Below, piece after piece: positions 3,652 to 43,906 of a stretch of DNA of 64,000 nucleotides (the first letter of the stretch is position 1; each line of letters opens with the position of its first letter). A model generated the notes under the pieces. It saw only the letters and a program-made list of their open reading frames with translations, did not search any database and was not told the origin of the DNA. Location: the IMG/VR virus record IMGVR_UViG_3300021430_000416, positions 18,435-82,434 of that record. One strand, given 5' to 3'. The translations under genes and the position numbers were made by a program. The stretch is from a virus (taxonomy: Duplodnaviria > Heunggongvirae > Uroviricota > Caudoviricetes).

Positions 3652-3870
3652 ATGCAAACATTATTATTCAACACAACAACAAAAGAAGCTAAACTTTACG
3701 CTGATGAAAAACACGCCTCTAAAATGTTAGAGATGTTCACAAATGTACCTACAGTAAGAATTTCTGAACAAGGATATTACGAGGTAATGAAAAAATTGGA
3801 CGGAGAAGAAAAAAACGTACCGGTTTTGAGAGTACCAATTGCAAACACAAACATGGTAATTGAAAAATAA
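3652..3870 (+). CDS. hypothetical protein
   Basis: 72 aa ORF with tight packing. Confidence 0.4.
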   Translation: MQTLLFNTTTKEAKLYADEKHASKMLEMFTNVPTVRISEQGYYEVMKKLDGEEKNVPVLRVPIANTNMVIEK

Positions 3871-4891
3871 CATGGAAAGAAAATTAGCAAGTGTAAGAAA
3901 AATTTTAAACCTATCACCAATCGAGGGTGCCGATAAAATCGAACTAGTAACAGTTGATGGATGGAAAGTTGTTGTTGCTAAAGATGTCGGTCACAAAGTT
4001 GGTGACTTGGTTATCTATTGTGAGATAGATTCATTTCTCCCGATTAGAGAAGAGTTTGAATTCTTACGTAAGAGTTCATACAAAAAAATGTCAGATGGGA
4101 CCGAAGGATTCAGATTGAAAACAATTAGACTTCGTGGACAAATTTCACAAGGTCTGATTTTACCAATGAGTGTCTTTGGTGATTTTGGATGGACCGCATA
4201 TGAGGGTCTTGATGTTACCGAAAGATTAGGTATCGTAAAATACGAACCACCAATCCCTGCGGAACTTGCTGGTAAGGTTAAAGGTATGTTCCCATCATTC
4301 ATTCCGAAAACGGATGAAGAAAGAATTCAGAACTTCACGAATGAATATGATGGTTGGAAATTACAATCTAAACATCAATTCTACGTAACCGAAAAGTTGG
4401 ATGGTTCATCATCAACATTCTACATTAACAATGGTGAGTTCGGTGTATGTTCACGTAATTTGGAATTACTAGAGACCGAAGGAAACACATTTTGGAAAGT
4501 TGCTCGTGAACTTGACCTTGAAAATAAAATGAAATCTTTAGGTAAAAACATTGCACTACAAGGTGAATTAATTGGTGAAGGTATTCAAGGTAACCCATAT
4601 AAAATAAAGGGACAAACTGTTAAGTTTTACACAGGGTTCGACATTGATGAGTACCGAAGACTTACCTTACCTGAATTCGTTTCATTAATTAGTAGTTTAG
4701 ATTTACAATGTGTACCGATTTTGGATGATAACTTCATGTTACCATCAACAATCGAAGACATGTTGAAATATGCTGATAATAAGTCAGTATTAAATCCCGA
4801 AACTAATCGTGAAGGTGTTGTAGTCCGTTCATTGGATTGTACCATTAGTTTTAAATCAATCAGTAACACATTTTTACTAGAAGAAAAATAA
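3860..4891 (+). CDS. ATP-dependent RNA ligase, DraRnl/Rnl5-like (N-terminal OB-like domain + nucleotidyltransferase domain)
   Basis: TEKLDGSSSTFY is ligase motif I (KxDG). GELIGEGIQGNPY and REGVVVRS are motif III/IV-like. The N-terminal GADKIELVTVDGWKVVVAK resembles the DraRnl OB-like module. Confidence 0.6.
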   Translation: MKNNMERKLASVRKILNLSPIEGADKIELVTVDGWKVVVAKDVGHKVGDLVIYCEIDSFLPIREEFEFLRKSSYKKMSDGTEGFRLKTIRLRGQISQGLILPMSVFGDFGWTAYEGLDVTERLGIVKYEPPIPAELAGKVKGMFPSFIPKTDEERIQNFTNEYDGWKLQSKHQFYVTEKLDGSSSTFYINNGEFGVCSRNLELLETEGNTFWKVARELDLENKMKSLGKNIALQGELIGEGIQGNPYKIKGQTVKFYTGFDIDEYRRLTLPEFVSLISSLDLQCVPILDDNFMLPSTIEDMLKYADNKSVLNPETNREGVVVRSLDCTISFKSISNTFLLEEK

Positions 4892-4892
4892 G

Positions 4893-6806
4893 ATGTCAAA
4901 ATTTACTCCAAGTAAGTATCAAAAAGAAATATTCAACTTCATATTAAAAGATGATAAGAATGCGGTTATCTCTGCGGTTGCCGGTAGTGGAAAAACAACC
5001 ACATTATTAAAAGCATTGGATATTATTTCTGATGATAAATCAGTTTTGTTTCTTGCATTTAATAAAAGTATTGCAGAAGAATTAAGTAAACGAGTTCCAC
5101 AAGATAAGAATAACATTTTGGTTAAGACTGTCCATGGTTACGGATACGGTATTCTTAGACAGAGAAACGACCCAAAGATAGATGATAAAAAGTATCGTAA
5201 ATTACTTTGGAGTGTAATTCATCACCTTAATGGTAAAGATGAAAATACAATACAAACTTATGGTTTTGATGAAAAACATAAGAAGTACATTAAGGAAATA
5301 TCAAAACTATTACCGGACGAAAATACAGATGCAAATAAATTTGTAACAGATGTTCTTAGTCTTTGTAATTTAGCTAGACTACATTTAATTAATTTTGATA
5401 TCAAACCAATTGGTGTTGGTGAGATTAATAAACTAGCACAAATACATTCAGTTAGTAATGAAGATAATGAATCTACCGTTGCTTGGTATCTTTCAAATTT
5501 AGGGATTTATTATGATAGGGTAATCGACTATACCGATATGGTGTCATTACCCATCATATTAAATTTGGATTGTGAGAAATACGATTTTGTATTTATTGAT
5601 GAGTGTCAGGATTTGAACACATGTCAGAGAATCTTGATGCAAAAATCAATCAAACCTGATGGTGGTAGATTCATTGCGGTTGGTGACCCGAAACAAGCGA
5701 TTTATGCATTTGCTGGTGCCGACCACGAATCATTCCAAAAACTAAAAGGTATTCCAAACACAATAGAATTACCACTTTCATTTACGTATCGTGTTGCGCC
5801 ACAGATATTGAATTTGGTTAAACACATTAATCCCGCAATTGTTGCTCACTCAAAAAACAAATCGGGTAAAGTTATAGACAACTTCTCATACAAAGATATC
5901 CAAGATGGTGACATGGTTTTGTGTAGAAACACATTCCCAATTGTTGCATTGTGTATTAAATTATTGAGTGAGGGTAAGAAATCTTACATCATCGGTTCTG
6001 ATATTGGTTTATCGTTGAAGAACATGATTTCAGGTTGTAAAAGAGAAAGAGAAGAATTCAACATGAACAATGTCCTTTGTCGATTAATGAAGGATAAGGA
6101 GAAGATGATTGAAAAAATCATGGCCAATCACAACATGAAAAAGAGTGAGGCGATGGAAGATAGTCAGGTTATCATTTTTAGTGAGAGAATACTGGCAATC
6201 GAATCAATTTCAAATGGTATTGACGACCCGAATGTTGTTATTGAAAAAATAGACACAATATTCTCGGATAAGGATAAATCCGGTATCTGTTTAAGTACGA
6301 TACACAAATCCAAAGGTCTTGAGGCGGATAGAGTGTTTATTATTCACCAAGATTTAATCCCATCAAAATATGCATCATTACCTTGGGAATTAGAACAAGA
6401 AAAGAACTTGGAGTATGTTGCTTACACTAGAGCTAAAACCATATTAGGTTTTGTAAATGACTTTGATGCGTTTAAGTCCCATAAAACAAGAGACATCGAC
6501 ACAACAAAAGTTAAGATTAGTAAATACGTCGGTTCTCCAAACATGAAGATGTATTTAACACTGACGGTTGTTGATAAAAGAACAGTTAACGGAATGTACG
6601 GTGAAACCACCGTATTTGATTTGGTGGATGATTCGGGTAACATCTTTTCTAAATTTGGTAATATTGATGCAAGTTACCTCGACGGTGATATTATGGGAAG
6701 TGAAGTTACCATTAATTCTAAGGTTTCTTTTTACGGTATCATAAAAGAACACATGGAATATAGAGGTAACAAAATCAACAAGTTAGGTAAGATATCACAC
6801 TACTAA
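4893..6806 (+). CDS. UvrD/PcrA-like SF1 DNA helicase with a C-terminal extra domain
   Basis: AVAGSGKTTTL (Walker A), FIDECQD (motif II), GDPKQAIYAF, LPLSFTYRV, STIHKSKGLEADRVFII (motif VI). Confidence 0.8.
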   Translation: MSKFTPSKYQKEIFNFILKDDKNAVISAVAGSGKTTTLLKALDIISDDKSVLFLAFNKSIAEELSKRVPQDKNNILVKTVHGYGYGILRQRNDPKIDDKKYRKLLWSVIHHLNGKDENTIQTYGFDEKHKKYIKEISKLLPDENTDANKFVTDVLSLCNLARLHLINFDIKPIGVGEINKLAQIHSVSNEDNESTVAWYLSNLGIYYDRVIDYTDMVSLPIILNLDCEKYDFVFIDECQDLNTCQRILMQKSIKPDGGRFIAVGDPKQAIYAFAGADHESFQKLKGIPNTIELPLSFTYRVAPQILNLVKHINPAIVAHSKNKSGKVIDNFSYKDIQDGDMVLCRNTFPIVALCIKLLSEGKKSYIIGSDIGLSLKNMISGCKREREEFNMNNVLCRLMKDKEKMIEKIMANHNMKKSEAMEDSQVIIFSERILAIESISNGIDDPNVVIEKIDTIFSDKDKSGICLSTIHKSKGLEADRVFIIHQDLIPSKYASLPWELEQEKNLEYVAYTRAKTILGFVNDFDAFKSHKTRDIDTTKVKISKYVGSPNMKMYLTLTVVDKRTVNGMYGETTVFDLVDDSGNIFSKFGNIDASYLDGDIMGSEVTINSKVSFYGIIKEHMEYRGNKINKLGKISHY

Positions 6807-9444: not shown

Positions 9445-10947
9445 ATGTTTAGACCAAATTCACTTTTCTACACTGACGGATACAAAATCGGTCACAAAAG
9501 AATGTTAGCTAAAGGTACAACACGTTTGTACGGAACATGGATTCCACGTAGCATCAAGTACGCACCAAAGGGTGTTAAGAAAATTGTATCATTCGGACAA
9601 CAACTTGTTGTTAAGTGGTTACACGATGAGTTCCAAGAGAACTTCTTTAATCAACCAATTGAAGTTGCTGAAAGATTCGGAAAAGATATGTCAATGTATC
9701 TTGGTATGGATTATGATGCATCACACTTCGTTGAGTTACACAAATTAGGTTACTTACCTATCCGTATCAAATCATTACCTGAAGGTATTGAAACAAATCC
9801 AAATGTTCCTCACATGACATTCATTAATACCGTTGATGGATTTGCGTGGTTGACATTATATTTGGAAACCATCATTAGTTCATTGTCATGGAAACCTTCA
9901 ACCTCAGCAACAATTGCTCTACAATACAGACGTAATGTTGTTGAATGGGTGATGAAAACCGACCCAGCTAACGCTTGGTTAATCCCTTTCCTTTGTCATG
10001 ACTTCTCGGCTCGTGGATTAAGTCCATGGGATATGTTATCAAGTGGTCTTGGACACGCATCATCATTCTTGGGTTCTGACACAATCATTTGTATCCCCGG
10101 TGCTCGTTACTTCTACAACGAACCTGAAGACCAAGTTTCAATCTACTCTGTGAATGCGTCAGAACACTCAGTATCGACAACTAAAATCTTTACTGTTGGT
10201 GAACAACAAATGATTGCTGATTGGTTGGAAGAGTTCCCTAAAGGAATCCTGTCAATTGTGTCCGACACATTTGACTTGTGGAAGTTGATTACCGAATACT
10301 TACCGGCAAACAAAGAAGCTATTATGGCTCGTGACGGTAAATTGGTAATTCGTCCTGACTCAGGTGACCCTGTAGATATTATCTGCGGAAAACCTGATGA
10401 ATCTGGTGTTTTCAATGACCAAGACTACGCAAAGGCATCTAAAAGTGGGTCACCTGAGCAAAAGGGTGTTATCGAATTACTTTGGGACATCTTTGGTGGT
10501 ACAATCAACGAACAAGGTTACAAAGTTCTTGACCCACACATCGGAGCAATTTATGGTGATTCAATCACATTAGACCGTCAATTAGAAATCTACAAAAGAT
10601 TAGAAGCAAAAGGATTTGCATCAACAAACATCGTGTTAGGTGTTGGTTCATTCACTTACCAAATGAATACCCGTGACACATTAGGTTTCGCAGCCAAAGG
10701 TGCTTGGTTTGAGGTTGAGGAGAACAATACCAAAGTTGGTTACGATATCTACAAAGACCCTGTAACTGATGATGGTACTAAGAAGTCTTTGAAAGGTTTG
10801 ATTTGTGTTACTGAAAACCATGAGGTGTTAACACAATGTACACCTGAACAAGAATCACAAGGTATTCTTCAAACGATTTATGAGAATGGACAGTTCCATA
10901 ATCAAATAACTTTAACTGAGGTTCGTGAACGTTTAAACAAACTTTAA
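9445..10947 (+). CDS. nadV: nicotinamide phosphoribosyltransferase family protein (NadV/NamPT homolog; alternatively a NARP1 Namat-type enzyme)
   Basis: FYTDGYKIGH (TDSYK motif), YSVNASEHS, IVSDTFD, VIRPDSGDP and IYKDPV all match conserved NAMPT blocks. Confidence 0.9.
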   Translation: MFRPNSLFYTDGYKIGHKRMLAKGTTRLYGTWIPRSIKYAPKGVKKIVSFGQQLVVKWLHDEFQENFFNQPIEVAERFGKDMSMYLGMDYDASHFVELHKLGYLPIRIKSLPEGIETNPNVPHMTFINTVDGFAWLTLYLETIISSLSWKPSTSATIALQYRRNVVEWVMKTDPANAWLIPFLCHDFSARGLSPWDMLSSGLGHASSFLGSDTIICIPGARYFYNEPEDQVSIYSVNASEHSVSTTKIFTVGEQQMIADWLEEFPKGILSIVSDTFDLWKLITEYLPANKEAIMARDGKLVIRPDSGDPVDIICGKPDESGVFNDQDYAKASKSGSPEQKGVIELLWDIFGGTINEQGYKVLDPHIGAIYGDSITLDRQLEIYKRLEAKGFASTNIVLGVGSFTYQMNTRDTLGFAAKGAWFEVEENNTKVGYDIYKDPVTDDGTKKSLKGLICVTENHEVLTQCTPEQESQGILQTIYENGQFHNQITLTEVRERLNKL

Positions 10948-10948
10948 T

Positions 10949-11203
10949 ATGAGTATATTAGAAAAAGCTTGGTTGTACTTTCTTATGTTGGTAATCGCAT
11001 CATTTATTGGTGTTGGAATATACTTCATTCTCTCATCTAAAAAAGTTGTGAGATATGAACTTGATGGTCGGTACTCTTATGGAGTACCTGCCATCAACGT
11101 AAATGTTGAAAATGGTATGGATTATACCATTCAATTATCCAAAGATGTTACATGGAATGATGCAGTTCACATGATTGATTCACTTAACAAAACAATTAAA
11201 TAA
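10949..11203 (+). CDS. small membrane protein
   Basis: 84 aa with an N-terminal TM helix. Confidence 0.45.
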   Translation: MSILEKAWLYFLMLVIASFIGVGIYFILSSKKVVRYELDGRYSYGVPAINVNVENGMDYTIQLSKDVTWNDAVHMIDSLNKTIK

Positions 11204-11204
11204 A

Positions 11205-11993
11205 ATGGGATTAGATATATATCTTTATCGTTACGATAATTTCGAAAAAACAAGAGAACTCGAAAAAAAACAAAGTGAGTTCGATGATAGAACATGGGCA
11301 GAAGCCGGTGAGTACGATTCATTAACCGACGAACAAAAAGATGAAGTACGTTCAAAAATTAAAGAACATGCTAAAACTTTAGGTTTGGATGAATGGGGTT
11401 CAGATGAAACAACTTGTGAACAAATCGAAGAACCTCACCCAAGTTATCCTGACCACTACTTCAAAATCGGGTACTTCAGGAGTTCATACAACAATGGTGG
11501 TATCGAAAGAATTCTTCGTAACTTAGGGTTACCAACTATGAGTGATATCTTCAACCATGGAGATGAGGACTATTATTTCCAACCAAATTGGGAAGAGTCT
11601 TTAGTTCGTTGTGAGGATGCCATCCAACAGTTTACACAGAAAGGTGCGTATCGTGTTCACCACGTTAGTAACAACATGTTCAGTGAACCAAAGATACATT
11701 CCGAAAAAGAAGCTCTTGATGTTTTCTTGGAGGAGTTGGGTAAGTACAAACCAAATGGTGAAGGGTACAACTACTCAAACATCAATGGTGAGTTTTCATT
11801 CCATGAACCACAAAAAGTATTGGCGATGATTCCGGGTACATACAAAATATTCAACGAACAACCATGTGTATATGTTGTAACTGAGAGTGATAACACTTGG
11901 TACATAAATGCACTTGAGATTGTCCGTGACACAATCAAGTATGTTTTGTCAAAGGAAAACAAAGAACAATACTACCTTCACTGGTCAGGATAA
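11205..11993 (+). CDS. hypothetical protein of the MGLDIYL N-terminal family
   Basis: The true start is probably the ATG directly after the upstream stop (MGLDIYLY...). Paralogous N-termini occur at 18121 and 52967(-). Confidence 0.5.
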   Translation: MGLDIYLYRYDNFEKTRELEKKQSEFDDRTWAEAGEYDSLTDEQKDEVRSKIKEHAKTLGLDEWGSDETTCEQIEEPHPSYPDHYFKIGYFRSSYNNGGIERILRNLGLPTMSDIFNHGDEDYYFQPNWEESLVRCEDAIQQFTQKGAYRVHHVSNNMFSEPKIHSEKEALDVFLEELGKYKPNGEGYNYSNINGEFSFHEPQKVLAMIPGTYKIFNEQPCVYVVTESDNTWYINALEIVRDTIKYVLSKENKEQYYLHWSG

Positions 11994-12060: not shown

Positions 12061-13431
12061 ATGAGTACCCAATTACATAGAGAACTGAAATTATCGAGCG
12101 AAAAATATGTTTCATACGATGAATATTTGGGTGCACACTATACATTTGGTACCGCAAATGCCAAAGAGTTGAAACAATACCTATTGGATAATCTCGAATC
12201 ACAAGGTATTAATCCTGACGAATTTAATCGTGGGGGTGGTGATGATATTTCACAAAACCCACCTGTTGAGATTTATGAATACCAATTGTTTTTTCTATTG
12301 AGAAAAGAGAATGGTGATTTAATTCTTCTTGATGGTTTTAGACGTTTGTTGTGGTACAATTCTCCGAATCATAGAATTAATGTTAGAGTTTACGATGAGG
12401 GCGAATTAAGTAATCAACAAATAATGAAGTTGTTGATTTATTTGAACCACTTTAAATTTTATGGTAGTAGTGGAAAATATTTTGACCGTGGATTTGCACT
12501 TGGAATGCACACAATTTTTGGTTTGAACATACCAAAATACTATAACACTTTTGATGCATATCTCACGTTGAGTGATACTGAAAAAAAATATTGGAGTGAA
12601 AGTACTACCGACACAAAAGAGAATCTTAGTGTAAAGGAGAGAATGTTGAACCCAATGTTTATTTCCGACATGAAGTTCATTGAGTCTTTACTCGGTACTG
12701 ATGTGATGATTACCCCAATTATGGGAGCATTAATCCATAACACCAGACTTCAACACCCTGACAAAGAATTTTCAAGTGAGTTCTTTTTGAATAAGGTGAA
12801 TGAAAATGAAATCTTGAAAAAACTGCATGAGAAATTTCATAAAGTCGGTGATGGACACGGTGTAGATTCTCAGAAAATTGTCAATCAAATCGTACCTCTT
12901 TACAAAAACATTTTCAACGAAATGTTGGGTGGTGAAATTACATTAACATACGCCGAGAAAAAGGACGAAGTTAAAAAATTGGTTGAGCAATTGAAGAAGG
13001 ATAAAGCTCATACCAAACTAACTGGTAGTAAGAGCGCGTACCTAATGGAATGGGTTATGGAAGATAGAATCAAAAATAACCAACCAATCAATTTTAAATG
13101 TGTTATTCCCCCAAAGGAACTTGACCCACATCGTTGGAATCGAAATGGTGAAAATAATGACCCATTGGAACACGGTTTATTGAAACACGAGGTGAAAGTC
13201 CTTGGTAAAACGAGAGGGAAATCATATGGTTCATCAGAATTAAAAATTGGTTTTACCGATGAAGAAGGTCGTGAATTTATATTCCGACACAACTACGGAG
13301 ATTGGCACAGTTACGGTAAAAAATATACAACAATAGAAGGTGGTGGAATACCATGTATACGATATGATGTCGACCTTTTTGTTGATATCACCAAATCGGA
13401 AATTGAAGAAAAAGACAAAAACAGATATTAA
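12061..13431 (+). CDS. hypothetical protein with a ParB/Srx-like motif
   Basis: 456 aa. ILLDGFRRLL resembles the ParB nuclease-domain DGxxR motif. Weak. Confidence 0.5.
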   Translation: MSTQLHRELKLSSEKYVSYDEYLGAHYTFGTANAKELKQYLLDNLESQGINPDEFNRGGGDDISQNPPVEIYEYQLFFLLRKENGDLILLDGFRRLLWYNSPNHRINVRVYDEGELSNQQIMKLLIYLNHFKFYGSSGKYFDRGFALGMHTIFGLNIPKYYNTFDAYLTLSDTEKKYWSESTTDTKENLSVKERMLNPMFISDMKFIESLLGTDVMITPIMGALIHNTRLQHPDKEFSSEFFLNKVNENEILKKLHEKFHKVGDGHGVDSQKIVNQIVPLYKNIFNEMLGGEITLTYAEKKDEVKKLVEQLKKDKAHTKLTGSKSAYLMEWVMEDRIKNNQPINFKCVIPPKELDPHRWNRNGENNDPLEHGLLKHEVKVLGKTRGKSYGSSELKIGFTDEEGREFIFRHNYGDWHSYGKKYTTIEGGGIPCIRYDVDLFVDITKSEIEEKDKNRY

Positions 13432-13434
13432 AAT

Positions 13435-14358
13435 ATGGCAGAAGTATTAAACTTAGTCAACCCAAATGACACCTTATCTTTCAAGTATGAGATAAGTAGA
13501 TTCCCCGATGGGCAACAATCGTTACGATTGATTGAAGAGGGGTATAACACCTTTCACTCACTCAAAGATAATCCATACGGAATAACAATCAAATCACGTT
13601 TAAATGATTTCCGTGATTTGGAAATTATCATATGTGCAACACAAGCACTTAAAGAAGTTGGTGTCCAAAGAATCAGATTATATATTCCATATTGTACCGG
13701 AGCAAGAAGTGACCGTAAATTTATGGAGGGTGGAATTAATTATGTGAAACACGTAATCGCACCAATCATCAATTCACAAGGTTATGAACAGGTGATAATT
13801 ATGGACCCACATTCGGATGTTCTTGAAGCTTGCATCAACAACTTCGTTAAGGTTGATAACATTAGACTTGCGGAATTCACATTCAAAGATTATTTCTTAT
13901 CAAAAGGATTTGAAACTTGGTCAAATAGTAACTTTCAAAATGTTCGTTTGGTGTCACCCGATGCTGGCGCATTGAAGAAAGTGTTCCATGTTGCTGATAA
14001 ATTTGGTTATAAAAACGATATTGTTATTGCATCAAAACATAGAAATCTTGAAACTGGTAAAATTGATTTTACCAACGTACCTATGTCATTAAATGATGCG
14101 GATAAGGATGTGTTTATTTTCGACGACATTGGGGATGGTTTTGGTACATTTATAAACATCGCAAATGAAATTGAAGAAAAAAGAAAATTATCAAGTGATG
14201 TTCATCCATCACAACACGGAAAAAATTATTTGGTTGTCACACATTCAATACAAGAGATTGGTTTAAAAAGAGCATTAAATGTTTTTGATAAAATCTACAC
14301 CACAAATTCTATTAACGATTGGGAAATAGAGAATGTTGTTGTTTTAAATGTCTTTTAA
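13435..14358 (+). CDS. prs: ribose-phosphate pyrophosphokinase (PRPP synthetase) family protein, divergent (Prs or ADPR-pyrophosphokinase-like)
   Basis: YIPYCTGARSDRK matches PRS VIPYfGYARQDRK. IIMDPHSD, VSPDAGALKK and DDIGDGFGT match the PRPP-binding loop. The N-terminal FPDGQ region is divergent. Confidence 0.75.
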   Translation: MAEVLNLVNPNDTLSFKYEISRFPDGQQSLRLIEEGYNTFHSLKDNPYGITIKSRLNDFRDLEIIICATQALKEVGVQRIRLYIPYCTGARSDRKFMEGGINYVKHVIAPIINSQGYEQVIIMDPHSDVLEACINNFVKVDNIRLAEFTFKDYFLSKGFETWSNSNFQNVRLVSPDAGALKKVFHVADKFGYKNDIVIASKHRNLETGKIDFTNVPMSLNDADKDVFIFDDIGDGFGTFINIANEIEEKRKLSSDVHPSQHGKNYLVVTHSIQEIGLKRALNVFDKIYTTNSINDWEIENVVVLNVF

Positions 14359-15175
14359 AAAGTTCTTCCATATTTATGATAAATATGCGACCATGAAAGA
14401 ACTTAAAAAACCACAAATTAAATGGACAGAAGAAAAAAAACAATATCTAATTGAAAATTACCCATATGGTGATAAAAAAAAGATGTGTTTGGAATTAGGG
14501 TGTACATACAAATCTTTAAAAAGTATGGCAAGATTGTTAGGTGTAAAATCACTAACTGATAATAAACATTATAAATTAAAAACATTGATTGATGATAATG
14601 TTTATAACAATTACTGGTGGGGATACGTCTTGGCAGATGGCCATATAAATGAAAAAAATCAATTAAGTGTGGTTATTAAAGAATCTGATTCACATCATTT
14701 AAAAAAATTATCAGATTATTTAGGTGTAAATTTAAAATGTAGAAAAATTAAAACCGAATACTCTGAAGGTGTTTATTGTAACTTTACATGTCAAGATGTG
14801 ACATATGGTAAAATATTAAAAGAAAATTTGGGGGTAACTAAAAATAAAACATATGAATGTTTCGATTTTACTTGGATTAACACCGAAAAAAAATTTTTAA
14901 GTGTTTTTGCAGGATTTTATGATGGTGATGGGTGTTTAACATTGTCTAAAAACAAGACACCGGTAACAATGAAAATTGAATGTCACTACAATTGGTTCAT
15001 TTTTTTGGAGTTTTGTGGTTTGATGTTGAAAAAATATTATAACATAGAGTCAACGGTATATATCACAACAAAGGGTTCGTCGGCATTAAGGATATATGGT
15101 AAAAAAAACATAAATCTTTTATATGAAAAATGTAAAAAAAATAATTTACCTTTGTTGGAAAGAAAATGGAATTAA
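14348..15175 (+). CDS. LAGLIDADG homing endonuclease (two-motif, monomeric type)
   Basis: WWGYVLADGHI and FAGFYDGDGCLTL are two LAGLIDADG-like motifs about 100 aa apart. Confidence 0.6.
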   Translation: MSFKKFFHIYDKYATMKELKKPQIKWTEEKKQYLIENYPYGDKKKMCLELGCTYKSLKSMARLLGVKSLTDNKHYKLKTLIDDNVYNNYWWGYVLADGHINEKNQLSVVIKESDSHHLKKLSDYLGVNLKCRKIKTEYSEGVYCNFTCQDVTYGKILKENLGVTKNKTYECFDFTWINTEKKFLSVFAGFYDGDGCLTLSKNKTPVTMKIECHYNWFIFLEFCGLMLKKYYNIESTVYITTKGSSALRIYGKKNINLLYEKCKKNNLPLLERKWN

Positions 15176-15328: not shown

Positions 15329-15808
15329 ATGAAGACAACTAACAAACATGTGTTTTTTTGGAATGGTATATATTCCCAATGGCACAAAGCACCAATGACA
15401 ATCGATGGTGTTACATACAATTGTTGTGAACAGTATATGATGCATCAAAAAGCACTCCTTTTTGGTGATGTGGAAATTGCTCGACAAATTTTAAGAGTGA
15501 GCGACCCAAGAGAACAAAAAGAATTAGGTAGAAAAGTTAAAGGTTTCAATAAGGAGAAGTGGGATAAGGCTTGTGTTGGTATTGTTTACAAAGGTAACTA
15601 CGCAAAGTTCTCACAAAACGAAGATTTGAAAACCGAACTTCTAAACACAGGTAACAGAATTCCTGTTGAGGCATCACCCGTTGATTACATTTGGGGTATT
15701 GGAATGCATGAGGACGATAACGGTGTGGAGAACCCAGCAAATTGGAAAGGTACTAACCTTTTAGGTTGGTCAATTATGTTGGTACGTAACGAATTATCAA
15801 ATGAGTAA
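15329..15808 (+). CDS. NADAR (YbiA-like, DUF1768) domain protein
   Basis: FFW..SQWH, DGVTYNCCEQYMMHQKALLFGD, LGRKVKGF..EKW, KFSQNEDLKTELLNTGNRIPVEASPVDYIWGIG match the NADAR conserved blocks. Confidence 0.7.
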   Translation: MKTTNKHVFFWNGIYSQWHKAPMTIDGVTYNCCEQYMMHQKALLFGDVEIARQILRVSDPREQKELGRKVKGFNKEKWDKACVGIVYKGNYAKFSQNEDLKTELLNTGNRIPVEASPVDYIWGIGMHEDDNGVENPANWKGTNLLGWSIMLVRNELSNE

Positions 15809-16154
15809 TTTAATTTTCATATCATCACCATACTCAAATCCCGACCCTAAAGTTGTTGAAGAAAATTATATCAAGGTTGCAGAATTGGTTGCACATTTAA
15901 CACTAAATGGAATGACACCAATCTCACCAATAGTTTACGGTCATAATATTTTAAAGTTCGTTAGTCTTAATAATGATTGGGAAACTTGGAAGGACTTCTG
16001 TTTGACCTTCCTAAAAAAATCCGATGAGTTATGGGTCTACAAGATGGACGGTTGGAATCATTCGAGGGGTGTTGCAGAAGAAATTGAATTTGCGGTAAAA
16101 AACAATTTACACATAAAATATATCGAATATGAATACTTCAAAAAAGTTTTATAG
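15801..16154 (+). CDS. DUF1937-like protein (nucleoside 2-deoxyribosyltransferase/SLOG-like fold)
   Basis: N-terminus LIFISSPYSNPDP...GMTPISPIVYGH resembles the DUF1937 signature. Confidence 0.45.
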   Translation: MSNLIFISSPYSNPDPKVVEENYIKVAELVAHLTLNGMTPISPIVYGHNILKFVSLNNDWETWKDFCLTFLKKSDELWVYKMDGWNHSRGVAEEIEFAVKNNLHIKYIEYEYFKKVL

Positions 16155-16476
16155 GGTTTCACATGTCAACACACAACAAGGATTGTGGTACAACATGAAT
16201 GGCATCTTCACCGGGTTGATTCATAATGAATTCAATTTCTGTAAGAACAATAGTTTAGCAATGGATTTTGACGATACTATTGTGGGTTATCTATCGGCAA
16301 CACCAACACTTGATGAACTGTTTAATTGGTTCACAAAAGAAGACATTACAAAGTTACAGGAACATGATTATTATATTCATGTTTACGAATCTGACGACTA
16401 CAAGTTTTATGACAGATTCCAACACTTTGTAATCAACAAAGAATCATCCAAATTATTAGAAAAAATAGTATTATAA
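16129..16476 (+). CDS. hypothetical protein
   Basis: 115 aa ORF. Confidence 0.45.
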   Translation: MNTSKKFYRVSHVNTQQGLWYNMNGIFTGLIHNEFNFCKNNSLAMDFDDTIVGYLSATPTLDELFNWFTKEDITKLQEHDYYIHVYESDDYKFYDRFQHFVINKESSKLLEKIVL

Positions 16477-16913
16477 TGAAAGAATATTTCTATAAAAATC
16501 CGGAATCCATTCCGTACCTTGAGAGGTTAGAACAAGAATGGAGACAATATGGTAAGATAATCATCGCTTGCGATTATGACGATACCATTTCACCATGGAA
16601 AATGACTAACACAGATTTCAAACGAGTTTTTGATGTTCTGAATGTGGCAAAACAAACAGGTGCATATGTTGTAATCTTCACGGCATGTAAGGAAGATAGA
16701 TATCCTGAGATAACAAAATATTGTTTAGACAATGGTTTGGAGATTGACGGTATCAACACCACACCGATTGATTTACCATATGGTAACAACAAAAAGATTT
16801 ACGCAAACATCTTCATTGATGATAGGGCAGGTCTGAACGAATCATTAAACATACTCGAATTGGCTATGTACCGTATTCGTGGTAGTAAACAATTAAACAA
16901 TTTTGATTTTTAA
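16476..16913 (+). CDS. HAD-superfamily phosphatase-like protein
   Basis: IIIACDYDDTIS contains the DxDxT motif I, and the downstream VVIFTACKED resembles motif II. Confidence 0.45.
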   Translation: MKEYFYKNPESIPYLERLEQEWRQYGKIIIACDYDDTISPWKMTNTDFKRVFDVLNVAKQTGAYVVIFTACKEDRYPEITKYCLDNGLEIDGINTTPIDLPYGNNKKIYANIFIDDRAGLNESLNILELAMYRIRGSKQLNNFDF

Positions 16914-17373
16914 AATTATGGCAATATTTAAACCACCACACAACATTGCACATAGGAATACAAGAATGAAATCTGTATTTTTAGCCGGTTCAATTGAAAT
17001 GGGTAAAGCAGAAGATTGGCAAACAAATCTTTCAAATTTTTTCAACGACAATGGTTGGAATGTTTTTAACCCTCGTAGAGATGATTGGGATTCATCTTGG
17101 ACTCAGGATTTTGAAAACCCACAGTTTTACCAACAAGTAAGTTGGGAACTCAACGCATTAAGTCAATCCGATTTAATCATAATGTATTTTGCACCGGGAA
17201 CGCAGTCACCTATTTCATTATTGGAGATGGGTCTTTATGCAAATTCAGAAAAACTTCATGTGGTTTGTCCCGATGGTTTTTGGAGAAAAGGGAATGTGGA
17301 AATCGTATGTAATCATTACAACATTCCATTAACAAATACAATTGATGAATTATTAGAAAAATTAATACCATGA
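16903..17373 (+). CDS. nucleoside 2-deoxyribosyltransferase-like protein (start possibly at the internal MKSVFLAGS)
   Basis: VFLAGSIEMGKAEDW...NVFNP...SPISLLEMGLYANSEKLHVVCPDGFW matches the Nuc_deoxyrib_tr fold signature, including the catalytic Glu region. Confidence 0.6.
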   Translation: MIFKIMAIFKPPHNIAHRNTRMKSVFLAGSIEMGKAEDWQTNLSNFFNDNGWNVFNPRRDDWDSSWTQDFENPQFYQQVSWELNALSQSDLIIMYFAPGTQSPISLLEMGLYANSEKLHVVCPDGFWRKGNVEIVCNHYNIPLTNTIDELLEKLIP

Positions 17374-20927: not shown

Positions 20928-21246
20928 ATACCAATCTCATTGTGTTAATTGCACCGACACCGATACATAGGTAAACACCCCAAATTGGTAAGTCATGTAA
21001 CTCGTGACACATCCAAAAGACGTTCATTAAAACCCAAGATAATAGTGTAATGTTCGCATCTCTATTATCTTTTTCCATATAGAGTATATAAAGTGTTAAT
21101 AAAATGGTTGGTCCTATCATAAAAGTGGCCAACCATTTTAGTTTTAAACACCAAAATACGTCTTTAAACAACCACGAGGTAAAATGGATTGTTTGAATAT
21201 TAGATAATACCTTCTTGAACAATTTTAGGGGATTCATTTCTATCAA
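20908..21246 (-). CDS. hypothetical membrane protein
   Basis: 112 aa with multiple hydrophobic helices. Confidence 0.45.
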   Translation of the reverse strand: MIEMNPLKLFKKVLSNIQTIHFTSWLFKDVFWCLKLKWLATFMIGPTILLTLYILYMEKDNRDANITLLSWVLMNVFWMCHELHDLPIWGVYLCIGVGAINTMRLVFKTASR

Positions 21247-21595
21247 TCATGACCCACTCGGCTCTGATTAAACCCCAAGGTCTAAAACATTCAACAACCT
21301 GTTCTAATTCAAAACACTTACAACTGTAGATGTCGAATTGTAACATTGGGAATTTTAAGTTATCCCAAATGTGGATTGATGCGTGTGATGTCGCTAATGT
21401 TACTGTTCCGGTTAACCCCTCATTACCGGGGTCTGATACGTAAACACTTGTTGGTCCTGCCACAACCTTCATTCCTACCGTCTCAACCAAGTTTACAAAC
21501 CAATTATTTAAAACTTCAACTTCTTTTGGTGGGTTCTCAACCCAGCATTTCATCAATAAATGTTGATGGAAAGGGACGAATTTTTCTGTATCCAA
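21200..21595 (-). CDS. S-adenosylmethionine decarboxylase-like pyruvoyl proenzyme (SpeH/SpeD family)
   Basis: GLTGTVTLATSHASIHIWDN matches the AdoMetDC self-processing motif (L.ESH.SIHTWPE), where Ser is the cleavage/pyruvoyl site. Confidence 0.55.
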   Translation of the reverse strand: MDTEKFVPFHQHLLMKCWVENPPKEVEVLNNWFVNLVETVGMKVVAGPTSVYVSDPGNEGLTGTVTLATSHASIHIWDNLKFPMLQFDIYSCKCFELEQVVECFRPWGLIRAEWVMIDRNESPKIVQEGII

Positions 21596-21644: not shown

Positions 21645-22046
21645 TCATTTACCTGATATGAAATCAGATAAAATTTTGTTCATTACATTAGCAAATTTCA
21701 TGTTAGGGATTTCCTCAGCGGTTACAAACTTTAGATATTGACCCTCATTAAGTGGAATCTCCTCAATAGGTTTATCAATTATACCGTGGAACATGTATTT
21801 TATATTTTCTGAAACATCACCATCTAAACAGATATACTTTTTCCAAAATCGAAAATCAACTAAGTTAAATTCAATTTCTTCCATTACTTCTCTTTTTAAT
21901 GCAACTACAGGTAATTCACCCTTTTCTACGTGACCACCGATTAAATCCCAATGATTGGGGAAAGGTATTGATGGGTCATTATCTCTTAGGTACACAAGGA
22001 ATTCACCCTTTGGATTTTGAAATATTATTTGAGATATCTTAAACAT
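21645..22046 (-). CDS. Nudix hydrolase
   Basis: GGHVEKGELPVVALKREVMEEIEF is the Nudix box Gx5Ex7REUxEExGU. Confidence 0.8.
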   Translation of the reverse strand: MFKISQIIFQNPKGEFLVYLRDNDPSIPFPNHWDLIGGHVEKGELPVVALKREVMEEIEFNLVDFRFWKKYICLDGDVSENIKYMFHGIIDKPIEEIPLNEGQYLKFVTAEEIPNMKFANVMNKILSDFISGK

Positions 22047-27180: not shown

Positions 27181-27765
27181 GTGTCAGAAAGGAGAAATAT
27201 TATGAACAAATCACAATGGTGTATAAATCAACACCACAACACAAATCATTACTACGACACGTACCTTCCGTATGAATTTCATTTACGAATGGTTCACCAA
27301 GTGGCGATGGATTTCAAACATCTTTTAGATGACACAAAAGACTACTTTACCGGTGAACGATACCGAGGACCCAATCAAGACCAAGTTACACTACAAGATG
27401 CTTGTTTAAATGCAACATGGGGTCACGACCTTATTGAAGATTGTCGTGTTTCATACAATGATGTTAAGAGTCATTTAGGTCAAGAAGCTGCCGATATTAT
27501 CTATGCAGTTACCAATGAGAAAGGTAAAACAAGGTCTGAACGTGCTAATGACAAATACTATGAGGGAATTAGAAATACTCCCGGTGCTGTATTTGTTAAG
27601 TTATGTGACCGAATTGCCAACGTACAATATTCAAAGATGACCAAGAGTCGTATGTTTGAAATGTACAAAAAAGAAAACGAACATTTTATCAAATCTTTGG
27701 GTGGACATCCACAACACGAACTCCATTCAATGTTTGATTACCTTATCAACCTCTTCAACGATTAA
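27181..27765 (+). CDS. HD-domain phosphohydrolase
   Basis: H..H...WGHDLIED and VKLCDRIANV are the HD and downstream D motifs. Confidence 0.65.
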   Translation: MSERRNIMNKSQWCINQHHNTNHYYDTYLPYEFHLRMVHQVAMDFKHLLDDTKDYFTGERYRGPNQDQVTLQDACLNATWGHDLIEDCRVSYNDVKSHLGQEAADIIYAVTNEKGKTRSERANDKYYEGIRNTPGAVFVKLCDRIANVQYSKMTKSRMFEMYKKENEHFIKSLGGHPQHELHSMFDYLINLFND

Positions 27766-36679: not shown

Positions 36680-37030
36680 ATGGCAAACAAAAACATTACC
36701 AACGGAATGAAAGCATTAGAGCTTTTGAAATCCAACAAGACAGTAGCAGAACGTGCTGAGAATTATGCAACCGCAGTGAAGCGTAACATTCAACGTGATG
36801 TTATCGACACCCTAACCGCCAAAAAAGAGGCTATCGAAGATGAGTTGTTTGAGTTGACAAACTTCAATCTTGAGACCGATGTGAACAAAGGTTTTCAAGC
36901 GATGACCAAAGACTCTGTTGAGACTCGTTTCAAGAAAATCATCGACCTTGAGTACAAGTTGAAATTGGTTACTCTTGAGTTGACAGCAAAACAAGAATCA
37001 TTCAACAAATACTTCGGAGATGGCGAATAA
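36680..37030 (+). CDS. hypothetical coiled-coil protein
   Basis: 116 aa ORF. Confidence 0.5.
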   Translation: MANKNITNGMKALELLKSNKTVAERAENYATAVKRNIQRDVIDTLTAKKEAIEDELFELTNFNLETDVNKGFQAMTKDSVETRFKKIIDLEYKLKLVTLELTAKQESFNKYFGDGE

Positions 37031-37520
37031 ACGGATATACATAAGTTGTCCGATAGCTGTTGACGAAGAAGTATTGGACGAGTTCGCCGATTTGGTGGAC
37101 AGTATAGATGGTTTAACTTCATATCATTGGGAACGTGGAACAAGATATGACCAAAAGATGTTTGATACATCTGATGCGTATCTTTTCATCTTACCTTACA
37201 ACAAGTTCAAAGCGGGAAATTCTGAATTACCAATTGGACTAAAAAGGGAATTAGATGCGGCACATAAAACCGGTAAGAAAATCTTTGTTGGGTACATAAC
37301 CAAGAGTGGTGAGTTCGCAATCTATTTAGCATCATCAAATGGTTATTACATCGAAGGTATTCCCGGTACAACCCACGAGATTTCATCTATGGTTGATAAT
37401 GTGGTCACAACTAAATACGACCCAACAACCTTTGAGGAAACAACATACCTTAATGGGGAAAAGGTTAAGACCGATACCAATTACACATTCGATGAGAGAG
37501 CACTTCTAATGTTACTGTAA
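37020..37520 (+). CDS. hypothetical protein; possible third nucleoside 2-deoxyribosyltransferase/SLOG-like protein
   Basis: RIYISCPI at the N-terminus and ELPIGLKRELDAAHKTGKKIFVGY resemble the deoxyribosyltransferase fold. Weak. Confidence 0.45.
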   Translation: MANKRIYISCPIAVDEEVLDEFADLVDSIDGLTSYHWERGTRYDQKMFDTSDAYLFILPYNKFKAGNSELPIGLKRELDAAHKTGKKIFVGYITKSGEFAIYLASSNGYYIEGIPGTTHEISSMVDNVVTTKYDPTTFEETTYLNGEKVKTDTNYTFDERALLMLL

Positions 37521-42424: not shown

Positions 42425-43906
42425 ATGAATCTTAAAGAAGAAAAATATAGAAAAAGAAAGAATTTCAGAACTAAGGAGGAATGTCACCAATACGCTCTGA
42501 AATATAAATCTATTAAAGAATTTATTGAGGGTGATGGTCATGTTTATTTATATGCTTCACGTAGAGGATGGTCACATGAGATAACATCTCATATGAGAAA
42601 AAATATCCGTTGGGTTGATAAAAAAGACGAGATTCGCCAAGCAGCATTAAAATATCAAAATAGAGGAGAATTTTGTTTAAAAGATGGAAGGTACTATGAA
42701 GTTGCTAGACGACGTGGTTGGCTTGATGATATTTGTGGTCACATGGTTTCGGTGGGTAATAAATTTAAAAGATTGGTGTATGTTTATGAATTTGAGGATA
42801 AAACGGTTTATGTTGGTTTAACATTAAATGACATAAAAAGAAGTCATTCACATAGTACATCAAACGATAGTCCGGTATATAGATATCAACAAGAAAAGGG
42901 TTTAAAACCTGTAAAAAAGATAGTAACCGATGGTTATATTGATTCAGAAGAGGCTAAGAAAGTTGAACACGATACTGTTGAGAAATATAAAAAATTGGGT
43001 TGGAATGTTCTAAATAAAACCAAAACGGGTGGATTAGGTGGGACAGATAGAATTTGGACAGATGAAAAAATAAAGGAAACAATATCTAAATACACGTATG
43101 AGAGTGAAGTAAGAAAGAATGAACCTAAATTGATAATGAAATTACGTAATATAGGTAAGATTGACGAATATTTAGGTGTTTTGATTAAAGATACTCCAAT
43201 TTATTGGAATGAAGAAAAGGTTAAGAAGGTAATTTCGGAACACACACATCTATTGGATTTTAATAATCAATATCCCGGTGCTAGAGCATGGATTCGGGTT
43301 AACAAAATGGAACATTTGTTGGATGGTTTGATTAGTAAAAATCGAGTAAGGCAAGTAAAGATTAGATGGAACAACAAAGAGGAAATTTTGAACATGGCAT
43401 CAAAGTATGATAACATCAGTAAGTTCCAAAAAGAAAACAGGGGGATGTATAATTCCGCCAAACAAAACGGTTGGTTAGATGATATAAAAAGGATTATACC
43501 ACCAAAGTTTTTATGGACAAAAGAAAAGGCCATGGAGGTTACAAAGAGATATACGGATTACCAATCGTTTAGGGTTGAGAATAAGAATGTATATGATGCG
43601 ATTAAGAAATATGGGTGGGACGAATGTTTAACTCACTTAAAAAGAACATTTAAAGAATTTTCATATGAATTGGTTAAAGAGGAGGCATTAAAATATAAAT
43701 GTAGAAATGATTTTTTTAATGGTTCCAACAACGCTTACGCATATGCGAATAGACATAATATTTTAGATGAGATAACAACTCACATGGAAAAAAGGAACGT
43801 AAAAGGACATAAAGAAGAAATTTTTACATGTAGTGTATGTGGTAAAAATGTGGGTGGTTATACCAATCTTAAAAGATGGCACGAAGATAATTGTAAATCA
43901 AAATAA
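42425..43906 (+). CDS. large tandem-repeat protein with a central GIY-YIG/T5orf172-like nuclease motif
   Basis: Central RLVYVYEFEDKTVYVGLTLNDIKRSHSH, flanked by at least 8 copies of a ~35-45 aa repeat (ALKYxxxxEFxxxxxxxYxxAxxxGWxDxIxxHM). Confidence 0.6.
   Translation: MNLKEEKYRKRKNFRTKEECHQYALKYKSIKEFIEGDGHVYLYASRRGWSHEITSHMRKNIRWVDKKDEIRQAALKYQNRGEFCLKDGRYYEVARRRGWLDDICGHMVSVGNKFKRLVYVYEFEDKTVYVGLTLNDIKRSHSHSTSNDSPVYRYQQEKGLKPVKKIVTDGYIDSEEAKKVEHDTVEKYKKLGWNVLNKTKTGGLGGTDRIWTDEKIKETISKYTYESEVRKNEPKLIMKLRNIGKIDEYLGVLIKDTPIYWNEEKVKKVISEHTHLLDFNNQYPGARAWIRVNKMEHLLDGLISKNRVRQVKIRWNNKEEILNMASKYDNISKFQKENRGMYNSAKQNGWLDDIKRIIPPKFLWTKEKAMEVTKRYTDYQSFRVENKNVYDAIKKYGWDECLTHLKRTFKEFSYELVKEEALKYKCRNDFFNGSNNAYAYANRHNILDEITTHMEKRNVKGHKEEIFTCSVCGKNVGGYTNLKRWHEDNCKSK

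Follow-up and report, generated by a model that had tools for sequence, protein, structure and literature searches.

Genes for NADAR, DUF1937, HAD and PF15891 proteins downstream of a NARP1 NAD+-reconstitution core in an uncultured phage

Depletion of NAD+ is among the commonest antiviral strategies of bacteria, to which phages most commonly respond with NARP1. An earlier note on a 64-kb stretch of phage DNA (64,000 nt, hereafter the window) described a cluster of nucleotide-handling genes next door to a set of NAD genes and proposed that the two complement each other, raising the question of what these genes encode and whether they take part in NAD+ resynthesis. The source is a large, AT-rich, uncultured phage, of whose genome the window is only a part; megablast against known phages returned no nucleotide similarity, and the closest Namat sequences come from Leptolyngbya phage Lbo-JY46 (69%) and Tenacibaculum phage PTm1 (63%).

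In NARP1, Adps pyrophosphorylates ADP-ribose (ADPR), and Namat joins the resulting ADPR-PP to nicotinamide, yielding NAD+ (Osterman et al. 2024). Both core genes are present on the + strand of the window. The Namat-like nicotinamide ADPR transferase (9445..10947) has a Nampt-like core that lies much nearer the Namat structures of SPbetaL1 (PDB 9W5X/9W5W, 2.6e-117; ref. PMC12774641) than human NAMPT (about 1e-39), and it matches Pfam NAPRTase at 4.5e-33. Its selectivity clamp is only partly conserved, since F392 is kept while Y396 is replaced by Met. The Adps-like gene (13435..14358; phrog_619, 1.3e-53) begins 2.5 kb downstream of Namat and encodes a homologue of PRPP synthetase (PRPS) rather than a true PRPS, scoring 86.7 bits against TIGR01251 (below the cutoff of 113) and only weakly against PRPS structures (2e-10).

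Whereas NARP1 as described consists of two genes, here the core pair is parted by two open reading frames and followed by HAD, PF15891, NADAR and DUF1937 genes. The first intervening frame (11175..11993, + strand, 272 aa) is a conserved part of the island, with homologues between or adjoining Namat and Adps in three related loci (L011, L081 and L317); it had no Pfam or PHROG match and a weak match to PADLOC Csx1 (9e-4). A 262-aa frame, possibly a counterpart, fills the same slot in L144. The second, a 456-aa frame (12061..13431, + strand) without a family match, is probably an insertion, as homologues were absent from all of about 290 related loci. A LAGLIDADG homing endonuclease gene (14348..15175, + strand; Pfam LAGLIDADG_3, 6.2e-9) is a further, selfish insertion that is missing in the closest relatives, L011 and L144. 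Together with a 153-nt gap, it keeps Adps apart from the accessory genes. Relatives without these insertions carry the more compact orders Namat-262aa-Adps-NADAR-DUF1937-HAD-152aa-PF15891 (L144) and Namat-orf-Adps-HAD-PF15891 (L011). Scans for promoters and terminators gave no signal beyond shuffled expectation that would delimit the transcription unit.

The cluster itself, all on the + strand, spans 15329-17373. The earlier note had listed four consecutive genes, and our check of the window's reading frames found all four at their coordinates; the run in fact comprises five, in the order NADAR, DUF1937, Y00F-like, HAD and PF15891, as a frame at 16129-16476 had been overlooked. The four family calls themselves were borne out by profile, PDB, motif and model evidence. 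PADLOC recognised no defence system, its sole and expected match being the NADAR-type candidate model PDC-M42C.

The first gene (15329..15808) encodes a NADAR protein, by homology a YbiA-type ADP-ribosyl N-glycohydrolase, with strong matches to PF08719 (2.4e-52, 177.9 bits, cutoff 35.1), TIGR02464 (159.7 bits, cutoff 73.7), and the PDB entries 8BAU (1e-12) and YbiA 2B3W (4e-9). The catalytic residues, whose conservation the earlier note had suggested checking, are present: in alignments with 8BAU and YbiA, E34, K41 and E114 (in the last strand) match residues whose roles are known from characterised NADARs (see refs. PMC11257639, PMC11125620). All NADARs tested so far can free guanine of ADP-ribose, and those of phages act against DarTG1 (same refs.). 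The window protein shares the NADAR fold and the conserved Glu and Lys with AdfN (T4 gp30.3) and other anti-DarTG1 phage NADARs, but it does not belong to the gp30.3 clade, whose last strand bears a His in place of the YbiA-type Glu seen here (E114); its score against PF08010 (Phage_30_3) is 13.1 bits (cutoff 36). Unlike AdfN, NADARs of the window protein's own clade are linked to NAD+ resynthesis genes. A DarT-NADAR toxin-antitoxin pair was considered and rejected, with no ART gene among the neighbours and a LAGLIDADG endonuclease and DUF1937 as flanks.

The DUF1937 frame (15801..16154), whose first 8 nt overlap the end of the NADAR frame, has the fold of the nucleoside 2-deoxyribosyltransferase (NDT) superfamily; it matches PF09152 (1.3e-13, 52 bits, cutoff 23), DUF7768 (2.4e-9) and PDB 1T1J (about 3e-6), and its putative catalytic E94 is invariant in the alignment. 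Between it and the HAD gene lies the overlooked 115-aa frame (16129..16476), a small protein like T4 Y00F that matches phrog_23161 (3.5e-31) and whose homologues bear PF26820 (Phage_T4_Y00F); in four loci (L317, L331, L334 and L379) such a homologue flanks Adps or Namat or lies between the two.

The fourth gene (16476..16913) had no Pfam match, and its assignment as a predicted capless HAD phosphatase draws on motifs I-IV (DxDxT, S/T, K and DD) and the Rossmannoid fold of an AF2 model (pLDDT 85). Among 27 homologues the DYDDT residues D33/D35/D36/T37, like K107 and D115/D116, do not vary, and T69 hardly does. Foldseek gave the BT_0820 HAD structure 2OBB as best match, followed by 1XPJ, lipin, T4 PNKP and AfhF, with modest E-values (1.5e-3). 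Membership of the BT0820 equivalog (NCBIfam NF046079) was rejected because the score of 25.9 bits (E 1e-5) is below the cutoff, 165; judged by sequence, the window protein represents a related yet distinct subfamily. That subfamily is embedded in NARP1: in 32 of 34 IMG/VR loci, HADs of at least 45% identity lay no more than 8 kb from Namat, typically in the order Adps-HAD-Namat, as in phages DirtyBetty, VPT02 and cr111_1, while HADs below 45% identity were NARP1-linked in just 5 of 36.

The last gene most likely starts at ATG 16918 rather than TTG 16903, judging from the alignment, and ends at 17373. Its product belongs to PF15891 (Nuc_deoxyri_tr2; 2.1e-35, 121.7 bits, cutoff 30) and has a direct homologue of solved structure in PDB 4MCJ (about 9e-30), from which the invariant NPRRDDWDSSW motif of the window clade is absent. 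An N-ribosyl-hydrolase or -transferase activity is predicted. The description of the product as a nucleoside 2-deoxyribosyltransferase-like protein needs qualifying: the PF15891 match and the family-invariant FLAGSIEMG and SLLEMG blocks stand, but it is not a true nucleoside 2-deoxyribosyltransferase, scoring 16.1 bits against PF05014 (cutoff 28.8). Residues W39, R58, R59, W62, W81, E82 and E108 are invariant, the last lying in the SLLE(L/M)G block, at the position expected for the NDT Glu. With the NDT, DNPH1 (Rcl) and MilB superfamily the protein shares a flavodoxin-like fold and, putatively, a Glu that follows strand four (E108 here, E94 in DUF1937); the genomic partners of PF15891 suggest NAD- or ADPR-related substrates instead of deoxynucleotides.

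These family ties bear on a proposal in the earlier note, that the cluster may carry out dNMP base exchange for DNA modification. PF15891 and DUF1937 would then be dNMP N-glycosidases or base exchangers and HAD a (d)NMP nucleotidase. The annotation of phrog_355 as nucleoside 2-deoxyribosyltransferase agrees with this, as does the presence among small capless HADs of sugar-bisphosphate phosphatases of DNA hypermodification (e.g. AfhF, 9IQW). Against it stand the failed PF05014 assignment, the merely sporadic occurrence of thymidylate-synthase-type genes nearby, and the lack of co-conserved DNA-modification, dNMP-kinase or glycosyltransferase genes. No modification genes are linked to the cluster, and its conserved partners are all NAD or ADP-ribose enzymes; we regard a role in nucleotide pools or DNA modification as very improbable.

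To find which genes accompany NARP1, we collected 54 metagenomic phage loci seeded with Namat only, a sample that is unbiased for accessory genes though its loci are mutually related. Adps was present with Namat in 94% of them, PF15891 in 57%, HAD in 37%, the Macro-domain phosphatase Adpp in 35%, NADAR in 20% and DUF1937 in 13%. Other neighbours from the window (orf18121, a 2OG oxygenase, orf12061, orf11175 and the LAGLIDADG gene) each occurred in 0-2%. Blind clustering of reading frames recovered HAD in 19 loci, PF15891 in 18 and the validated Adpp-type Macro in 17. Locus counts come from profile-seeded scans, single-sequence scans with HAD, DUF1937 and orf18121 (a control) having given too few loci. 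Within the sampled Namat clade, HAD and PF15891 thus match Adpp in their frequency in NARP1 islands. We found no literature tying either to NARP1 (de Souza & Aravind 2012, who defined NADAR, might mention the operon) and nothing relevant on PF15891, DUF1937, 4MCJ, BT0820 or NDT together with Namat; given their Adpp-like frequency, the two families are therefore prime candidates for counter-defence or metabolite repair.

By its context, the cluster forms the downstream arm of an island for NAD+ reconstitution by NARP1. The idea that it complements the neighbouring NAD genes is strongly supported by comparison across genomes, with PF15891, HAD, NADAR and DUF1937 recurring next to Adps and Namat both in phage loci and in bacterial operons under NrtR. 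The linkage of the accessory families is facultative. PF15891 adjoins Namat or Adps in 41 of 55 phage loci, and in the cultured phages CcrColossus, vB_EliS-L02, RsoM2USA and X1 no NARP1 genes lie within 6 kb of its homologues; similarly, NADAR homologues of phi92 and Bacillus phage WH1 do not adjoin NARP1. Two outlying genes had also been named in the earlier note. The HD-domain phosphohydrolase gene (27181..27765, + strand; phrog_990, metal-dependent phosphohydrolase, about 3e-23; Pfam HD_4 weak, 0.0028) is a dispersed member of the accessory set, and its homologues flank Adps in six loci (L234, L241, L267, L317, L331 and L385). The other, at 37020..37520 (+ strand), encodes a protein of NDT/TIR-class fold and is a possible member. 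Homologues of both also lie beside Adps or Namat, solely in phage loci.

One precedent for a NARP1 feeder enzyme is Adpp, a Macro-domain ADPR-1''P phosphatase that counters aRES (ref. 10.64898/2026.01.28.702374). The window does not qualify as NARP1-AP (Adps-Adpp-Namat), since tblastn with an Adpp-type Macro query (E<0.01) found no Macro-domain gene within its 64 kb, which is part of the genome, and Pfam found none in the frames scanned. As in NARP1-AP, however, a small hydrolase gene sits between or beside Adps and Namat, and HAD takes the Adpp slot, although Adpp has a Macro fold and the predicted HAD phosphatase an unrelated capless HAD fold. HAD largely excludes the Macro gene in the sampled loci: the two occur together in 2 of 36 (Fisher p=0.007, or p=0.004 after dereplication at 90%). 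With dereplication of Namat at 75%, this exclusivity is no longer significant (0/6/3/10, p=0.5). HAD is likely a non-homologous analogue of Adpp. PF15891 was found in 19 of 19 Macro (Adpp) loci, and the Macro neighbours are the only ones given in Table S1 of the aRES preprint.

A different explanation is that the locus is a counter-defence hotspot, in which independent 'moron' genes have gathered at a variable early-gene position with no biochemical coupling; NADAR would be purely anti-DarT1, and HAD, PF15891 and DUF1937 would be unrelated to NAD+ resynthesis. The mosaic structure of the island (31 gene orders among the 54 loci), the homing endonuclease and unique 456-aa frame within it, and the occurrence of NADAR and PF15891 away from NARP1 all fit such a hotspot, and phage NADARs alone suffice against DarTG1 (ref. 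PMC11257639). Yet phages that are unrelated to one another have HAD between Adps and Namat, including Herelleviridae, Demerecviridae, Crassvirales (where the reading frames overlap) and jumbo-phage contigs, and the non-NAD neighbours in the window are not co-conserved. The same families are moreover co-operonic with Adps and Namat on bacterial chromosomes under the ADPR-sensing NrtR, for which a phage hotspot is an insufficient explanation. We consider uncoupled genes at a hotspot possible but rather doubtful.

These chromosomal operons were seen in Bacteroidota, in 25 of 80 bacterial PF15891 loci (Namat and/or Adps within 6 kb), with the general order NrtR-Adps-(NADAR)-(KptA)-(DUF4291)-PF15891-Namat-(Macro)-(ARH). 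About 70% of the bacterial PF15891 loci lacked NARP1, and their heterogeneous neighbours offered no common context. NrtR, for which ADPR is the effector, represses prs-nadV operons (Rodionov et al. 2008, ref. PMC2330246), and the Bacteroidota loci are likewise NrtR-first with prs-like and nadV-like genes. To the operons of 2008 they add PF15891, NADAR, KptA, DUF4291, Macro and ARH; that paper contains no mention of a deoxyribosyltransferase-like gene.

A further alternative is that PF15891, DUF1937, the protein at 37020 and NADAR hydrolyse or bind nucleotide messengers such as gcADPR, His-ADPR and N7-cADPR, blocking Thoeris-like signalling, with released ADPR as a by-product. RyDEP, a RyR-domain cADPR glycosidase, sits inside a NARP1 operon (ref. 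PMC13232231), and viral NADAR and SLOG proteins have been predicted to act on soluble ADPr derivatives (Iyer et al.). As a NARP1-embedded glycosidase whose product, ADPR, feeds Adps, RyDEP is also a conceptual precedent for PF15891, DUF1937 and NADAR, though it is unrelated to them in sequence and fold, and PF15891 occurs in bacterial housekeeping-type operons as well. The distribution of PF15891, at 50-63% identity across many bacterial phyla and including chromosomal NrtR operons, is more in keeping with a metabolic substrate than with a phage-specific signal. The invariance of the putative catalytic residues (HAD motifs I-IV, PF15891 E108, DUF1937 E94 and NADAR E34/K41/E114) speaks against pure sponges, a role that the earlier note had also raised, and the general searches turned up no similarity to known sponge families; hydrolysis of ADPR-derived molecules would be plausible. 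We judge the degradation or sequestration of immune signals to be unlikely as the main function.

The reading that we favour, and hold to be fairly probable, is that of an enlarged NARP1 island with the cluster as its accessory arm, whose genes would return NAD+-derived molecules to ADPR. Domain identities, the conservation of catalytic residues and recurrent NARP1 linkage are established here, and the substrates are those that we infer. The core would remake NAD+ destroyed by host NADase defences, and the downstream genes would broaden the set of NAD+-derived molecules convertible to free ADPR. HAD may act, in an Adpp-like role, as a phosphatase for phosphorylated ADPR, its candidate substrates being ADPR-1''P from RES-type NAD+ phosphorolysis, or ADPR-1''P/2''P derived from ADPR-1'',2''-cyclic phosphate. 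The latter compound is a spontaneous decay product of ADPR-PP and also a product of KptA. NADAR would take ADP-ribose off N-glycosidically modified bases (e.g. DarT1-modified guanine in DNA), both repairing the nucleic acid and freeing ADPR. PF15891 may cleave the C1''/C1' ribosyl bond of an NAD- or ADPR-related nucleotide via Glu108 and Arg58/Arg59, probably in the same branch as the phosphatase, and DUF1937, in most cases a partner of NADAR, would add another NDT-fold enzyme. More tentatively, PF15891 and a phosphatase (HAD or Macro Adpp) could make up a repair or feeder branch that has so far escaped notice in NARP1-type pathways, and in which the phosphatase would deliver free ADPR to Adps and Namat; we offer this as a possibility that may well prove wrong.

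Since these genes also occur together with KptA, Macro, ARH and NADAR in NrtR operons, which sense ADPR, it seems that bacteria possess a complete module for recycling ADP-ribose and that phages have borrowed it. Such a role would provide the first functional leads for two orphan families with solved structures (4MCJ and 1T1J). If the tentative branch of PF15891 and a phosphatase is real, it would represent the first NAD- or ADPR-directed activity in the PF15891 part of the deoxyribosyltransferase superfamily and would point to a conserved 'ADPR recycling regulon' common to Bacteroidota, where it is under NrtR, and their phages.

Five co-directional, closely packed ORFs occupy 15329-17373 of the window, all on the plus strand. 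The domain calls of the earlier note, which had counted four genes, were correct, but it missed a T4 Y00F-like protein (16129-16476; PF26820 found in homologues). The other four are a NADAR protein (15329-15808; PF08719, E=2.4e-52; PDB 8BAU, 1e-12; YbiA, 4e-9), a DUF1937 protein (15801-16154; profile match 1.3e-13; PDB 1T1J), a capless HAD phosphatase (16476-16913) and a PF15891 'Nuc_deoxyri_tr2' protein (starting at 16903 or 16918 and ending at 17373; 2.1e-35; PDB 4MCJ, 9e-30). Putative catalytic residues are kept alike in the NADAR (E34, K41 and E114), PF15891 (E108 and R58/R59, with several invariant Trp) and DUF1937 (E94) families, and this conservation speaks against the suggestion that the proteins act purely as sponges. 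The NADAR is of the YbiA type, with a Glu (E114) in the last strand where T4 gp30.3 has a His. A promoter/terminator scan of the cluster gave nothing above chance.

The HAD ORF had no match in a Pfam search, and its assignment rests instead on conservation of all four HAD motifs across 27 homologues and on the fold of a confident AF2 model (pLDDT 85), whose closest structures are the BT_0820 HAD (2OBB), 1XPJ, lipin, T4 PNKP and the phage arabinose-1,5-bisphosphate phosphatase AfhF. This small HAD family (phrog_1238) is widely labelled 'phosphoheptose isomerase' in public phage records (e.g., NC_031054 gp071, NC_055880 gp074 and NC_028950 gp149), a name that finds no support in the motifs and fold, which show a HAD phosphatase, and that appears to be a propagated misannotation.

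Upstream of the cluster, on the same strand, lie a Namat-type gene (9445-10947), whose match to the SPbetaL1 Namat crystal structures (9W5X/9W5W) reaches 2.6e-117 versus ~1e-39 for human NAMPT, and a PRPS-like (Adps) gene (13435-14358) scoring under every bona fide PRPS threshold. Judged by sequence, these are the two hallmark genes of NARP1, a pathway that uses ADP-ribose (ADPR) and nicotinamide to remake NAD+ (10.1101/2024.02.11.579819). Namat, Adps and the accessory genes are separated by a 456-aa ORF without detectable relatives (12061-13431) and a LAGLIDADG homing endonuclease (14348-15175), both missing from the closest metagenomic relatives, L011 (Namat-orf-Adps-HAD-PF15891) and L144 (Namat-262aa-Adps-NADAR-DUF1937-HAD-152aa-PF15891). 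These contiguous layouts make the cluster, in physical terms, the downstream section of the NAD island.

Between Namat and Adps, a 272-aa ORF (11175-11993) has homologues in the same or an adjoining slot in L011 and two further relative loci (L081, L317); in L144 the slot holds the 262-aa ORF. Pfam and PHROG searches of the 272-aa ORF gave no match, PADLOC found a weak Csx1 match (9e-4, residues 18-74), and the protein may be a further pathway component or sensor. Elsewhere in the 64 kb of the genome that the window covers, an AdoMet-decarboxylase-like gene (21200-21595, 5.6e-11) and a NUDIX hydrolase (21645-22046, 2e-12; matched by a NUDIX gene in the corresponding position of L144) lie a few kb downstream of the island on the minus strand, and two large neighbouring paralogous ORFs (42425-43906 and 44433-46505, both phrog_20046) include four repeated stretches in the second. 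An RNA ligase (phrog_968, 6e-89) and a UvrD-type helicase (3860-6806) directly precede the island. Upstream of its Adps-HAD-Namat operon, Vibrio phage VPT02 also carries an RNA ligase, together with a Nudix gene, a parallel hinting that RNA repair may be linked with NAD recycling.

According to Iyer et al. (2022), NADAR genes of phages may adjoin genes of NAD salvage, and the deoxyribohydrolase superfamily is represented in viruses by ARC-type members alone. The papers on NARP1, NARP1-AP, RyDEP and the Namat and Adps structures mention neither a HAD nor a deoxyribosyltransferase-like partner, and nothing relevant on PF15891, DUF1937 or 4MCJ was found in the searchable literature. When loci were fetched with each gene as seed in turn, genes of the cluster recurred in Adps/Namat neighbourhoods, which bears out the proposed tie to the adjoining NAD island. 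Seeding with PF15891 gave 55 phage loci flanked by 4 kb or more on each side; Namat lay within 8 kb in 41 of them (median distance 1.3 kb) and both core genes were present in 33. HAD-seeded loci at ≥45% identity had Namat nearby in 32 of 34 cases, typically as Adps-HAD-Namat; with more distant HADs this fell to 5 of 36. Linkage is facultative: PF15891 genes of cultured phages have no NARP1 nearby, and the NADARs of phi92 and Bacillus phage WH1 are unlinked to it.

A Namat-seeded sample, blind to the accessories though composed of phylogenetically related loci (n=54), contained Adps in 94%, PF15891 in 57%, HAD in 37%, NADAR in 20% and DUF1937 in 13%. Other immediate neighbours in the window (orf18121, a 2OG oxygenase, orf12061, orf11175 and the LAGLIDADG gene) reached 0-2%, an internal control for synteny by descent, and the 54 loci had 31 distinct gene orders. 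Blind clustering of ORFs in the Adps-Namat span ranked HAD (19 loci), PF15891 (18) and a Macro family (17) as top accessories, the last homologous to a protein of the published Adpp list (34% identity, 1e-31). Homologues of the HD gene (27181-27765), the Y00F-like gene and orf37020 (37020-37520) also occur inside NARP1 islands of other contigs. Further uncharacterised families recur in the Namat-seeded IMG/VR islands (L309-L386): a 141-aa family (12 loci), a 630-aa protein (10), a YqeY-like protein (9) and a second HAD type that matches HAD_SAK_2 (5). NARP1 operons with the small HAD embedded in them occur in cultured or named phages of unrelated families, including Bacillus phage DirtyBetty (Herelleviridae; Adps-Namat-HAD), VPT02 (Demerecviridae) and crAss-like cr111_1 (Namat-HAD-Adps, overlapping ORFs), as well as in freshwater jumbo-phage contigs; in cr126_1 and DAC15 at most 50 bp separate the HAD and Namat matches.

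PF15891 homologues (50-63% identity) are widespread in bacteria, and 25 of 80 bacterial loci carry Adps-like and/or Namat-like genes within 6 kb, NARP1 not being near in the remaining ~70%. The linked loci follow the pattern NrtR-Adps-(NADAR)-(KptA)-(DUF4291)-PF15891-Namat-(Macro)-(ARH); of the 25, 19 have NrtR, 14 KptA, 13 NADAR and at least 10 Macro; NrtR is an ADP-ribose-responsive repressor of prs-nadV operons (PMC2330246). The same families thus stand beside Adps/Namat outside phages, and every partner processes NAD or ADP-ribose, which is hard to square with a mere phage hotspot or with the DNA-modification role that had been proposed for the cluster. The NrtR-led operons of Bacteroidota (e.g., L167 and L189: Adps-like, PF15891, Namat-like, NADAR, KptA/Tpt1, DUF4291, Macro and ADP-ribosylglycohydrolase) resemble a full ADP-ribosylation and NAD-recycling module, within which DUF4291 is another orphan family.

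Two published precedents show NARP1 operons taking up 'feeder' enzymes by which non-canonical products of NAD+ breakdown become ADPR: ADPR-1''P is dephosphorylated to ADPR by the Macro phosphatase Adpp, which thereby counters aRES (10.64898/2026.01.28.702374), and the glycosidase RyDEP converts 2'/3'cADPR to ADPR (PMC13232231). HAD and Adpp-type Macro genes nearly exclude each other, co-occurring in 2 of 36 related Namat-seeded loci (Fisher p=0.007; p=0.004 after 90% dereplication; not significant after 75% dereplication, yet with zero co-occurrence). On this basis the HAD is proposed to be a non-homologous counterpart of Adpp whose substrate would be a phosphorylated ADPR, a reading to which we give slightly less than an even chance. 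PF15891 accompanies all 19 Macro-containing loci and 10 of the 19 HAD loci of the Namat-seeded sample, which suggests that it works in the phosphatase's branch and does not replace it. It might open ADPR-1'',2''-cyclic phosphate in a glycosidase-type reaction, after which the phosphatase would finish the conversion to ADPR. This compound is what ADPR-PP has been observed to decay into, and KptA, whose gene adjoins PF15891 in many bacterial operons, produces it as well; the step is chemically coherent, speculative and on balance improbable. PF15891 could alternatively be an NMN/NR nucleosidase, a cADPR-type N-glycosidase or a DNPH1-like dNMP hydrolase. Every NADAR tested strips guanine of ADP-ribose, and those of phages overcome DarTG1 (PMC11257639, PMC11125620); here too the product would be free ADPR. 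On the sequence evidence, the cluster is best read as the accessory part of an extended NARP1 island, one whose accessory enzymes may feed ADPR into NAD+ reconstitution.
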